Shown: piece by piece, positions 40,831 through 45,190 of the stretch
How the letters are laid out: each line of letters starts with the position of its first letter
How positions within the stretch are numbered: position 1 is the stretch's first letter
Sequence record: PP526941.1
Strand: one strand, 5' to 3'
Length of the DNA: 64,000 nucleotides
Origin: Escherichia phage vB_EcoM_ECO78
Translations under genes and position numbers: made by a program
Notes under the pieces: model-generated
Seen by the model: the letters and a program-made list of their open reading frames with translations, nothing else
What the model was told of the DNA's origin: nothing
The model's database searches: none

Positions 40831-41835
40831 TTAGCTCACCAACTCAATCCAAGCTGGACGAAGTACATCTTGTACCATTTTAACTAATTCCTTTTTAATC
40901 AAAGAAGGATTATCTGCTTGAGTTAGAGTAATACCTTCACGAGAAGTTTCTTCCAAAATATCTTGAACAGTTAGTCCCATCACCTTTCCAAAATCATTTG
41001 GACCAATTTCGCCAATTTTAGAAATAACGTTATTTACTCGGTTCAGTGTAACATAACAAGCTAAAATTCCCAGCAATTTATTATCAGCTTCTGACAGTTC
41101 AACTTTAGCTTTAATAGGCTTATCAGACTTTTTCTTTTCGCTAAATTTAGAGTTCTTGCATTTGATGGCTACACGATTGCGATTAGGCAGCCAAGAAGGA
41201 TAACAAGGTTTCAATACATATCCTTCAGCGGTAAATACTTCGCCTTTTGCTTCAGAATTCCAAACGCATTTATTTGCATCAACTAATCCAGCGTGGTCTA
41301 CTGTAAAATTATAATCTTGGACGACAGAATCTAAATCATTTGGCAATTTAATAAGCTCTTCAAATTTACCGCGACCTAAAAGTGGAGCCATTTTAAATTT
41401 AAACGTATTACAGAATGATTCCATCATATAATCATCGACATAAGTCACATCACCACTTTCTGTAGTAACAATAATGTCAAATACATAAAAATCTTTATCG
41501 CCATAATCGACATTCTTCTGAATGCCAGGTCCAGCGAATTCGCCAAAGACTTGATAAGATACAACCGCTGAGGTTTCCATAATATCTTGTACTGCTTTAA
41601 TGGAATCAGCATAATTCTTTAGAATAATTTCATACCCAAAGAAATCTTCAGCAGGAAGAATAGGACCAGTACGTTTAGCACAAGTTACTTTATCACGCTC
41701 AATAATCAATGAGAAATTTGTGCCGTGAATCTTTTCACGAGCTACCCACTCCCCACCAGTCAATCCCAAGCTATAAAGTTTTTCAATGAATTTAGAATTG
41801 TAATGATTTTCAAGACTGCTATATTTTTTAAACAT
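40831..41835 (-). CDS. rnlB: RNA ligase 2 (RnlB), 334 aa
   Basis: N-terminus [13 protein letters not shown]... with KIHGTN ligase motif I (lysine nucleophile). Confidence 0.9.
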
Positions 41836-41844
41836 AATTAATCC

Positions 41845-42123
41845 TCAAAATATAATTTCTAACCAATCACCATCACGCTGATCACTATTAACTTTAAAGC
41901 TGAATCCTTCTTTTCTCAGCCAATCACCAATTTCTTCAGTAATCAATTTATCACGAGCAATACAATAATAATTAAAATGTGTTTTACCTTGTTCAGCTGC
42001 TTTATTAGCAAGTTCCGAAAAATCTTTAATAAAACACTCTAGCTTAAACTGTTTACTTTTTAATGCTTTTTCGCGTAATTGATTAGCAAAAGATTCATTT
42101 TCATAAAGATCATACTGTTCCAT
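41845..42123 (-). CDS. hypothetical protein, 92 aa (24.2-like position)
   Basis: ATG start; located between rnlB and hoc. Confidence 0.55.
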   Translation of the reverse strand: MEQYDLYENESFANQLREKALKSKQFKLECFIKDFSELANKAAEQGKTHFNYYCIARDKLITEEIGDWLRKEGFSFKVNSDQRDGDWLEIIF

Positions 42124-42325
42124 TTTTCACCTTTTTATTAATATGTCTTTTTCTATAGACAACTTTTTCTCGAGTTTCAAATTTATTCTTAGCAGTCATA
42201 GCTCGAGCCCATAATACAGCCACTTCTTTAGCCTGTAAGTTTAATTCACGAGCAATTTCAATGAATGACTTTCCAGACTCATGAAGAGTAAACACCACAA
42301 CCTCAGTTCTCATAATCAATCTCAT
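42110..42325 (-). CDS. hypothetical small protein with HTH-like segment, 71 aa (start uncertain)
   Basis: Segment SFIEIARELNLQAKEVAVLWARA resembles a helix-turn-helix; no clear RBS for either candidate ATG. Confidence 0.4.
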   Translation of the reverse strand: MRLIMRTEVVVFTLHESGKSFIEIARELNLQAKEVAVLWARAMTAKNKFETREKVVYRKRHINKKVKNGTV

Positions 42326-42382
42326 GTTATCGAGTTGGTGCCATTATATACATCATTTTCTGATTATGTTTTGTGTGCTTTC

Positions 42383-42408
42383 AAAATGAAGAAAGGGGCC
42401 GAAGCCCC
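42383..42408 (-). terminator. rho-independent terminator after hoc (GGGGC-UUCG-GCCCC plus U-run)
   Basis: Minus strand GGGGCTTCGGCCCC followed by TTTCTTCATTTT. Confidence 0.6.
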
Positions 42409-42414
42409 TTATGA

Positions 42415-43833
42415 TTATGGATAGGTATAGATGATACCAGTTTCTAAAGCAGTTTTGTGAATGATGTATCCATTACGCGATTCTTGGACATCAACTTCTG
42501 GATAATCTTTCATCATCTTCTGGAGAGTGTAACGATGCAGATAGTATTTACTATCTGGGTCTTCAGTTTTCCAATCTTTACCTTCTTCAGTCATTTTTTG
42601 AATTTCATCCATAACCCACCAACCGCACCAGATATAAGCTGAAGTACGATGTGGAAGAGGATGAACATAAGGCAATTCACCTTCTGGTTCTGGAGCAACT
42701 TTATCAGTCACTTGAACTTGACCTTCTGCTGTGATAGTTTTGCTATCATAATCAGTGGCAGTAACAGTTGCAGTAACTTCAATAGTTTGACTTCCAATAG
42801 ATGATGTATCAACGGTGTATACATTAGTTGACCCTTCTACAGGAGAAGAATCTTTCTTCCATGAATAAGTAATTTGTGCTTCTTCTGGAGCATCCGTAAC
42901 ATTAGCAGTAAATGTAGCCGAAGCATCTTGCTGAACGTTAATAGAAGGAGGAGTCAATGTAACCCGTGGATTCATTGTTTTCTTATTAACTGTCAATGAT
43001 ACTTCATTCGAAGTAACTTCCTTTTCATTGTAATTTTCAGCAGTTACTTGGGCTACGCATTTAATTCTTTTTACTCCACTTGTAGTTGGAGTATAGTTAA
43101 ATGTAGAGTTAGTTTCTCCACCAACTTGTGAATCATCTACATACCACTGATACGTAGCAGACGCTCCAACTGGTTGAGAAGCTAAGGCAGCAGTAAATTG
43201 AACTGGGGTTCCAATCACTCCAGCAGCAGGACTATCAGGAGTTACTGCCAAGGTAGTTGTCTGCGTCTTTTTATTAACAGTCAGTGACACTTCATTAGAA
43301 GTAACGCTTAGTGTATCATAATCTGTCGCGGTTACTTGAGCCACACACTTAATTGTTTTAACTCCGCTTGTGGTAGGAGTGTAATTGAATGTAGCAGAAG
43401 TTGCTTCGCCAACAGGAGAACCGTCAACGTGCCATTGATACGTAGCAGATGCACCTGGTGGCTGCGAAGCTAAAGCGGCAGTAAATTCAATAGCTGTTCC
43501 GATTACTCCAGCGTCAGGGCTATTAGGAGTTACAGCTAAGGTGGTCGTTTGTGTCTTATTTTGAACTGTGATAGTTGTAGTAGCTTCTGCTGTTTCAGCA
43601 TCAGTATCTGGAACTGTATTTGTTGCAACTACTTTAATAGTCTTTTGCCCGGCAGGTCCTTTTAGTACATAACTAAAAGTTGCTTCAGCTCCATCTTGTG
43701 GAACATCATCCACAGTCCAAGCATATGTAATAGTTCCGCCTCCAGTTTCACCACTGGGTGTAGCAGTAAACTGCTTAGTTTCATCAATAACCCCTGTCGA
43801 TGTTTTAGGAGTTATATCAACTGTAAAAGCCAT
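42415..43833 (-). CDS. hoc: Hoc, highly immunogenic outer capsid protein, 472 aa with four Ig-like domains
   Basis: N-terminus MAFTVDITPKT..., C-terminal capsid-binding region WCGWWVMDEIQ; contains two near-identical 96-aa Ig-like units in tandem. Confidence 0.9.
   Translation of the reverse strand: MAFTVDITPKTSTGVIDETKQFTATPSGETGGGTITYAWTVDDVPQDGAEATFSYVLKGPAGQKTIKVVATNTVPDTDAETAEATTTITVQNKTQTTTLAVTPNSPDAGVIGTAIEFTAALASQPPGASATYQWHVDGSPVGEATSATFNYTPTTSGVKTIKCVAQVTATDYDTLSVTSNEVSLTVNKKTQTTTLAVTPDSPAAGVIGTPVQFTAALASQPVGASATYQWYVDDSQVGGETNSTFNYTPTTSGVKRIKCVAQVTAENYNEKEVTSNEVSLTVNKKTMNPRVTLTPPSINVQQDASATFTANVTDAPEEAQITYSWKKDSSPVEGSTNVYTVDTSSIGSQTIEVTATVTATDYDSKTITAEGQVQVTDKVAPEPEGELPYVHPLPHRTSAYIWCGWWVMDEIQKMTEEGKDWKTEDPDSKYYLHRYTLQKMMKDYPEVDVQESRNGYIIHKTALETGIIYTYP
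42979..43554 (-). repeat. intragenic tandem duplication (2 x 288 bp) encoding two Ig-like Hoc domains
   Basis: Protein segments 94-189 and 190-285 share most residues (TQTTTLAVTP...VSLTVNKK). Confidence 0.75.
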
Positions 43834-43842
43834 AAGTTATCC

Positions 43843-44523
43843 TTATTTTAATGTTACGAAAGAAGAGTTGCGTGTTTCACGAATTAAAACTGATCCATCA
43901 CGGTTAATGTAATAAATTAAGCTAAATAAAGTTTGATGTGCTGACGCATGTTCAAAACTAGTTGGGTGAGATTTCCAATCAGGAGTTTCAGCAATCCATT
44001 GATAAATCCACCAAGGAACAGTACAGAATCCTGGATTTTTTCCAATCAGCTGAAGATTCGGACTAAAGTTTTCCGGAAGAGTAAATACAGACGGCTTTTC
44101 AGATTCAATAATCTCAGCTACAGCCTGTTCAAATTTTTCTTCAACAAAGGGAGTATCTTCAATCAAAATATCAGTATTTTCAGGAATTTTATCCGTTTCT
44201 ACTACTTCAATTTTAATGTCAGATTTAACCGGAGAATCAATCAGAAGTGCTGCTTCTGGATTGACTTCTTCATCGTCATATTTTAATCCCTCTGCAGCAT
44301 CAGCAGCATCAATTAAGTCTTTAATAGATAACCCATCAGTCTCTGGCATAGGTTCACTAGCGAGCTTCTGGAGGGCTTCTTCAATATCAACAACGATATT
44401 ATCAAAAGATTTATTCTTTTTGACCTTTATACCAAACTGTTCAGCATATTCAGCTAATTTAGCTTTAGCTTCTTTATTATCATCAAGAGCCTTCAGCTCT
44501 GCAATATAATCTTTATCTATCAT
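43843..44523 (-). CDS. inh: Inh, inhibitor of prohead protease gp21, 226 aa
   Basis: Length and position (hoc-inh-segE-uvsW) as in T4. Confidence 0.8.
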   Translation of the reverse strand: MIDKDYIAELKALDDNKEAKAKLAEYAEQFGIKVKKNKSFDNIVVDIEEALQKLASEPMPETDGLSIKDLIDAADAAEGLKYDDEEVNPEAALLIDSPVKSDIKIEVVETDKIPENTDILIEDTPFVEEKFEQAVAEIIESEKPSVFTLPENFSPNLQLIGKNPGFCTVPWWIYQWIAETPDWKSHPTSFEHASAHQTLFSLIYYINRDGSVLIRETRNSSFVTLK

Positions 44524-44536
44524 AATATTTCCTCAG

Positions 44537-44544
44537 TATAAATA
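44537..44544 (+). promoter_or_regulatory. late promoter TATAAATA upstream of the segE-like gene
   Basis: Exact TATAAATA 29 nt upstream of the ATG at 44573. Confidence 0.5.
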
Positions 44545-44572
44545 TAGATATATTTATTACTCGGAAAATAGT

Positions 44573-45190
44573 ATGTACCACTTTGTATATGAAACAACAA
44601 ATCTAATAAATGGTAAAAAGTATATAGGAAAGCACTCTACTGATGACTTGAATGATGGTTACCTTGGTTCCGGTAAGGCAATTCAGCAGGCTATAAAGAA
44701 ATATGGTGAAAACAATTTCTCTAGAACAATACTAAAAGAGTTTAAAACTTCCGAAGAAGCGTACATGTATGAAGAAGAAATTATAACTCCTGAACTAATA
44801 AAAAGCAAAAATTATTATAATATGAAACCTGGTGGAATTGGTGGAATTGTTATGACTACAGATGTTATAGCAAAGATGAAAGAATCTTCCGCTAAAAGAT
44901 TTGAAAACTCACCGGGCACGGTATTAGGTAAAACTTGTTACACTAATGGAACTAAAAATATTTTTATTAAACCTGGAGAACTTGTTCCAGAAGGATTTGT
45001 AAAAGGGATGGTTCATCCTAATAGAAAGTCCAGAAAAGGATGTAAAGTCAAACCGACTACCACAGGAACTTTTTGGGTCAATAATGGCGCAATAAATAAA
45101 TTAATACAACCAGACGGTATTATTCCCGACGGATTTATTAAAGGTCGTCTCATGAAAAGAGATTCTAAAGGCAAATTTAGTAAGGCATAA
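44573..45190 (+). CDS. segE: GIY-YIG homing endonuclease (SegE-like), 205 aa
   Basis: N-terminal GIY-YIG motif (HFVYETTNLINGKKYIGKH) with downstream conserved R, E, N; same position and length as T4 segE. Confidence 0.8.
   Translation: MYHFVYETTNLINGKKYIGKHSTDDLNDGYLGSGKAIQQAIKKYGENNFSRTILKEFKTSEEAYMYEEEIITPELIKSKNYYNMKPGGIGGIVMTTDVIAKMKESSAKRFENSPGTVLGKTCYTNGTKNIFIKPGELVPEGFVKGMVHPNRKSRKGCKVKPTTTGTFWVNNGAINKLIQPDGIIPDGFIKGRLMKRDSKGKFSKA

Follow-up and report, generated by a model that had tools for sequence, protein, structure and literature searches.

The window analysed here, a stretch of 64,000 nucleotides of Escherichia phage vB_EcoM_ECO78 (record PP526941.1), carries an ATG-initiated open reading frame whose product matches the head decoration protein Hoc of phage T4 (PDB 5vf3_Z and four other PDB entries) with E = 1e-217. 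The first-pass annotation had assigned this 472-aa reading frame to hoc, and both the name and the length are borne out. The gene order around it is that of T4 (NC_000866): rnlB, 24.2, 24.3, hoc, inh, segE and uvsW, with hoc lying between inh and 24.3/24.2/rnlB, which is its position in the T4 late region. Pfam backs rnlB, DUF2774 (24.3), SegE and UvsW as neighbours; inh had no Pfam match in the window and is named from its size and position. Over 24 kb, the backbone of the window shares 97.3% identity with Serratia phage PhiZZ30 and 97.2% with RB3/RB5, which makes the phage a Tequatrovirus. The computed isoelectric point of the protein (pI 4.5) is acidic, as is usual for Hoc. The features of the locus are collected in Table 1.

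A terminator is annotated in the fPS-65 and WFK records at the place equivalent to that of the hairpin next to the hoc stop codon. An Rfam scan of positions 41800-44700 on both strands yielded nothing further at the hoc locus, and neither did an inverted-repeat scan of the hoc gene. The exact T4 late-promoter motif TATAAATA does not occur upstream of hoc or inh on the minus strand, and the only late-promoter-like sequence facing these genes there is a one-mismatch copy, AATAAATA, at 44558-44551. On the plus strand, an exact TATAAATA lies in the inh-segE intergenic region (44515-44600), at 44537-44544, facing segE. The latter gene, which encodes a SegE-type GIY-YIG homing endonuclease (44573-45190, plus strand), lies between inh and uvsW at a distance of some 740 bp from hoc. 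The window, T4, RB5, EP01 and PhiZZ30 all have it, and it is missing from the SHFML-11, fPS-65, UGKSEcP1, JK38-like, P0096 and P0020 loci, in which uvsW adjoins inh.

Table 1. Features of the hoc locus in the window (positions are those of the window).
Feature	Position	Strand	Residues	Basis or remark
hoc coding sequence, highly immunogenic outer capsid (head decoration) protein	42415..43833	-	472 aa + stop	ATG open reading frame; T4 Hoc match
Ig-like domain 1 (D1)	43555..43833	-	1-93	all-beta, pLDDT about 80-92
Unit A, first copy of Ig-like domain 2	43267..43554	-	94-189	without a counterpart copy in T4 Hoc; pLDDT >90
Unit B, second copy of Ig-like domain 2	42979..43266	-	190-285	counterpart of T4/RB5 domain 2; pLDDT >90
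Ig-like domain 3 (D3, T4 numbering), fourth Ig-like domain here	42691..42978	-	286-381	aligned to T4 Hoc residues 190-285
Capsid-binding C-terminal domain	42415..42690	-	382-472 + stop	96-98% nt identical across Tequatrovirus
Terminator-like GC-rich hairpin and T run	42393..42410	-		AAGGGGCTTCGGCCCCTT then TCTTCATTTT, directly 3' of the hoc stop codon

The alignment of the window protein with T4 Hoc falls into two stretches, residues 1-106 with T4 residues 1-106 and residues 189-472, that is, the C-terminal 284 amino acids, with T4 residues 93-376. The window Hoc therefore contains exactly one extra 96-aa unit relative to T4. An AlphaFold2 model (mean pLDDT 83) displays four all-beta domains of about 95 aa at approximately residues 1-92, 94-188, 190-284 and 286-377, mostly with pLDDT >90, followed by an alpha/beta C-terminal domain of low pLDDT. 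The best PDB fold matches of the model are four-Ig tandem proteins, namely ICAM-5 D1-D4, Dscam1 and Sidekick. At the sequence level, Pfam PKD and BiPBP_C matches exceed the cut-off, the PKD match covering aa 195-267 of unit B above the gathering score, and the all-beta domain 3 (pLDDT about 87-94) has weak Ig_3/I-set matches. D1 shares 87-96% nucleotide identity with the D1 of other Tequatrovirus hoc genes.

With respect to the C-terminus, a published list of T4 Hoc residues that contact gp23* or are structural (Y293, H295, H299, R300, Y304, W306, W309, W310, D313, Q354, E355-G359 and Y360; PMC10385173) allows a direct comparison, and all 16 residues are kept in the window protein at +96. As modelled and aligned, the window Hoc is a protein of four Ig-like domains plus a capsid-binding C-terminus, the same architecture that the first-pass annotation had read from the open reading frame.

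That annotation had also described two consecutive, nearly identical 96-aa units at 42979-43554. The units and their coordinates stand, both copies beginning with TQTTTLAVTP and ending with VSLTVNKK; their near-identity does not, since the copies share 79% of their amino acids and 74% of their nucleotides (213 of 288). Their similarity is nonetheless far above chance (BLASTP, 76/96 identities, E = 5e-53). Third codon positions hold 48 of the 75 nucleotide differences, the divergence is even along the unit, and the longest exact DNA match between the copies is 14 nt. In this regard, Tandem Repeats Finder, run on positions 42000-44200, reported a 12-nt microrepeat only and missed the unit pair because the units are too diverged, and a repeat search of the window recovered the pair as 251 nt at 75% identity.

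These differences bear directly on the possibility that the repeat was wrongly expanded by the assembler, for which nothing can be adduced beyond the general risk that attends tandem repeats. With 75 mismatches in 288 positions, the units lack the long exact repeat that an assembler could collapse or expand. Moreover, the reading frame is intact, PhiZZ30, the closest backbone relative, has a gene of equal length (1419 nt), and roughly one in three of the matching records sampled has the same architecture. We consider a misassembly to be extremely improbable.

Synonymous divergence places the separation of the two units well in the past. By the Nei-Gojobori method, A and B differ with pS 0.66, dS about 1.55 and dN 0.14, and the resulting dN/dS of about 0.09 indicates that both units are under purifying selection. 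When the hoc flanks (D1, and D3 plus the C-terminus) of the window are compared with those of eleven Tequatrovirus genes, dS amounts to 0.06-0.31, and for the C-terminal domain alone, compared with other Tequatrovirus, to 0.14-0.27. The A/B dS is thus 5-10 times the synonymous divergence of the remaining hoc gene among Tequatrovirus phages, and any age estimate taken from it is a lower bound only, because synonymous sites are near saturation.

Each unit has, in addition, a much closer relative in another phage than in its neighbour. Unit A is 95.1% identical in nucleotides to the sole D2 unit of a 376-aa Hoc like that of Shigella phage JK38, and unit B is 96.9% identical to the sole unit of RB5 Hoc and 90.3% identical to that of T4. 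In 26 clusters of two-unit Hocs, identity between the two units within a protein ranges over 75-85% (mean 79.6%), units from different proteins average 80.6%, and units at the same position reach 89-90%. Units within a protein are no more alike than units between proteins, and hence none of the sampled genomes shows evidence of concerted evolution or of a young duplication; the former was considered for units A and B and rejected on the same figures.

It had been proposed, from a supposedly high DNA identity of the units, that domain 2 was recently duplicated in tandem and in frame within the lineage of the window phage. The adjacency of two 96-aa units with matching boundaries and 79% protein identity would agree with such an event, as would the single unit of T4. 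A young duplication is expected to leave copies that are nearly identical in DNA, with low synonymous divergence, and that are mutually closest and private to the lineage. The unit pair departs from this expectation throughout: nucleotide identity is 74%, dS is 1.55, exact matches end at 14 nt, counterparts of each unit at 95-97% nucleotide identity exist elsewhere, the within-protein comparison shows no excess of similarity, and the A-B pair is common to about a third of the sampled Tequatrovirus genomes. The inference of a recent duplication does not survive these results, and we regard such an event as very improbable. Units A and B are old, clearly diverged paralogues that belong to a widespread allele.

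How widespread this allele is became apparent from a comparison of hoc length among related phages, which the first-pass annotation had itself proposed and which brought to light one-, two- and three-unit forms. DNA for the comparison came from GenBank records and from look-ups of exact protein matches; an IMG/VR scan gave 21 loci, few of them close. Megablast matched hoc in 678 phage records, in which the gene is annotated as Hoc or head outer capsid protein. In a sample of 60 evenly spaced records out of these 678, about 21 have the 1419-nt form of the window, 30 the T4-length form of 1131 nt and 2 a form of 852 nt, the rest being partial matches; about one in three of the sampled Tequatrovirus genomes thus has a two-unit hoc gene. 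The best 120 protein clusters, a set biased toward long forms, comprise 81 of 376-378 aa, 30 of 468-472 aa and 9 of 567-570 aa, and some of the 472-aa clusters have 58-167 member sequences.

Clustering of 168 units resolved three main types that track position in the protein: A in first place, B in second, and C in third or sometimes second. Unit A of the window groups with the first-position units of two- and three-unit Hocs, and each of the three types is also found as the sole unit of 376-aa proteins. Architectures were counted in 121 Hoc sequences, made up of the 120 database clusters and the AB protein of the window. Single-unit proteins carry A (25), B (44) or C (8); two-unit proteins are AB (25, including the window), AC (3) or BC (1); three-unit proteins are ABC (6) or ABB (2); and a few have intermediate or divergent units. 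The orders BA, CA and CB do not occur among the 121 sequences.

Some single-unit alleles are clean products of crossover between the units of longer arrays. In the three-unit Hoc of UGKSEcP1, units 1 and 3 differ at 62 sites. At these informative sites, the sole unit of P0096 follows unit 1 in nt 1-120 and unit 3 in nt 124-288, with 61 sites in agreement and one exception, which falls in the unit 1 part. This is what an unequal crossover between the first and third units of such an array is expected to produce. Likewise, the sole unit of the IMG/VR locus L002, whose D1 is 96.4% identical to that of the window, is A-type over nt 3-54 and B-type thereafter. When the proteins were put through a one-breakpoint likelihood test, 20 of the 81 single units came out as chimeras, 17 of them forward (A to B or A to C) and 3 reverse, these counts being of 90%-identity clusters and not of independent events. 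The forward polarity of the chimeras is also what flank-guided recombination of long with short alleles would predict.

The domain 2 of T4 is itself mosaic: most of its length is of B type, and an A-type patch at unit nt 216-249 encodes TATDYDALSV (NC_000866, 2688-3818). By its sequence the patch looks like a gene conversion. Since the patch runs in reverse order, B and then A, simple deletion is insufficient to account for it and gene conversion is needed.

Exchange is not confined to single units. Two relatives whose backbones are 97% identical to that of the window differ from it in hoc: PhiZZ30 has an A-B gene whose unit A is only 87% identical in nucleotides to that of the window, and RB5 has a B unit only and a D1 that is 89% identical. 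The 5' part of hoc is thus swapped as a block on a near-constant backbone. The mosaicism of hoc might in part stem from homing of segE with co-conversion of its flanks.

Taken together, these findings lead us to propose, with good confidence, that the window carries an intact Tequatrovirus hoc gene with the common two-unit allele (D1, D2-A, D2-B, D3 and C-terminus) of an ordered, recombining array of one to three cassettes, and that, by analogy with T4, its fibre would be longer. According to this proposal, domain 2 of Tequatrovirus Hoc behaves as an array whose one, two or three cassettes stand in a fixed order, and A, B and C represent positional types of old paralogues kept across many phages. 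Changes in copy number would arise by unequal homologous recombination between units, probably in mixed infections, and hoc alleles would also be exchanged between genomes as blocks.

With the present sampling, the pair may have originated either by duplication of a unit in situ, followed by divergence of the copies, or by the joining of diverged alleles. In the second case, an out-of-register crossover between co-infecting phages, one with a single A and the other with a single B, would have set two diverged alleles in tandem, and the product would then have spread by recombination. A and B do each exist as the sole unit of 376-aa Hocs at 95-97% nucleotide identity to the units of the window, the window gene resembles JK38 in D1+A and RB5 in the B+D3+C-terminus that comes after, and the conserved unit ends (TQTTTLAVTP, VTSNEVSLTVNKK) could guide such a crossover. 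Nevertheless, an extra reason would be needed for a dS of about 1.5 between alleles whose flanks differ by 0.1-0.3, the order is invariably A before B before C, and the demonstrable events go from longer arrays to single units. We consider a joining of alleles unlikely as the source of the pair, and retain the ordered, recombining array as our reading of the locus.

A broader view can be advanced more tentatively: the ordered A-B-C array may be a standing polymorphism of copy number and sequence whose forms are interconverted by unequal recombination, the three-Ig Hoc of T4 being a derived, mosaic and reduced form, and fibre length and valency may be tuned by selection in mucosal or immune settings. 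We hold this view as possible, somewhat short of probable.

As regards function, in T4 one Hoc sits at the centre of each gp23* hexamer through its C-terminal domain, and the Ig fibre is 180 A long (PMC10385173). By analogy, the C-terminal domain of the window Hoc would seat at the gp23* hexamer centre and its four Ig-like domains would project as a fibre, which should be roughly 45 A, or one domain, longer than that of T4. In the Hoc of PNJ-9, residues S183, L184 and T185 of the motif NEVSLT (N180-T185), which lies at the end of D2, are needed for MUC2/fucose binding (PMC11853027). The motif occurs twice in the window Hoc, at aa 180-185 and 276-281. The longer fibre would have more reach and, with two copies of the motif, possibly a higher glycan valency or avidity. 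Changes in Hoc length may thus be adaptive, as the first-pass annotation had suggested.

The window gene matters little alone, being an ordinary allele of a form found in hundreds of sequenced T4-type phages. The unit types, their strict order, the crossover products and the mosaic of T4 could help the engineering of T4 Hoc display and work on mucus adherence. In addition, natural fibres of one, two and three units occur on nearly identical backbones, which makes a direct comparison possible.

Two further records of the hoc region deserve mention. In Escherichia phage vB_EcoM_WFK, labelled Mosigvirus, both parts of hoc (positions 1501-1995 of locus L026) match Tequatrovirus sequence at 95-100% identity, a pattern suggestive of a large in-frame deletion and perhaps of transfer between genera. 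In Shigella phage SHFML-11 (NC_030953; positions 1501-2920 of locus L023), the hoc region is 1420 nt long instead of 1419 and has an early frame break, and RefSeq annotates Hoc as a 930-nt 3' fragment only; the break is a genuine frameshift or else an error in the sequencing.

Gain and loss of Ig-like domains are also seen in a different lineage. Two IMG/VR contigs (L005 and L006) encode four-Ig Hocs of 471-472 aa, 48-49% identical to that of the window, in which a D3-like domain is doubled, each D3-like unit being about 50% identical to the D3 of the window. Loci L007-L009 have one D3-like copy, and L011 (282 aa) is without D2. The pattern across L005-L011 is one of parallel gain and loss of Ig-like domains in another lineage.

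Among known systems, T4 Hoc (376 aa; PDB 5vf3, 8t1x and others) agrees with the window in gene, genomic position and collinear D1, D3 and C-terminus, and differs in having one D2 unit, mostly of B type, where the window has two (+96 aa). The two-unit Hocs of 472 aa from Serratia phage PhiZZ30, Yersinia phage PST and Escherichia phage HP3 share the 1419-nt gene and the A-B order; identities to the window reach 94.9% in nucleotides and 96% in protein for the closest cluster, the differences are allelic only, and unit A is the most variable part (87% nucleotide identity to PhiZZ30). The 568-aa Hocs of Escherichia phages UGKSEcP1 and UGKSEcP2 likewise place A first and B second, and add a third unit that is of C type or a second B. 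The shorter Hoc of the PNJ-9/EP01 type (283 aa) has D1, one D2 unit and the C-terminal domain as in the window, without D3 (PMC11853027). In other genera, Hocs have Ig-like domains strung on a C-terminal capsid anchor that is conserved, as in the window, and the domains gained there are different ones.

Variation in the number of Hoc domains has been documented before. A survey of 650 Hoc homologues found up to 10 Ig-like domains in some of them (PMC10385173), a variant without domain 3 has been published (PMC11853027), and the Hoc of Klebsiella phage PMBT63 has an additional Ig-like domain, the domain number being said to vary widely (PMC13435897). Our literature search met general statements on domain number only, and no account of the 472-aa Tequatrovirus Hoc, of A/B/C unit types or of crossover products. 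Variable domain number in Hoc is already known, and the A, B and C types, together with the crossover products, are a refinement of this theme rather than a new system.
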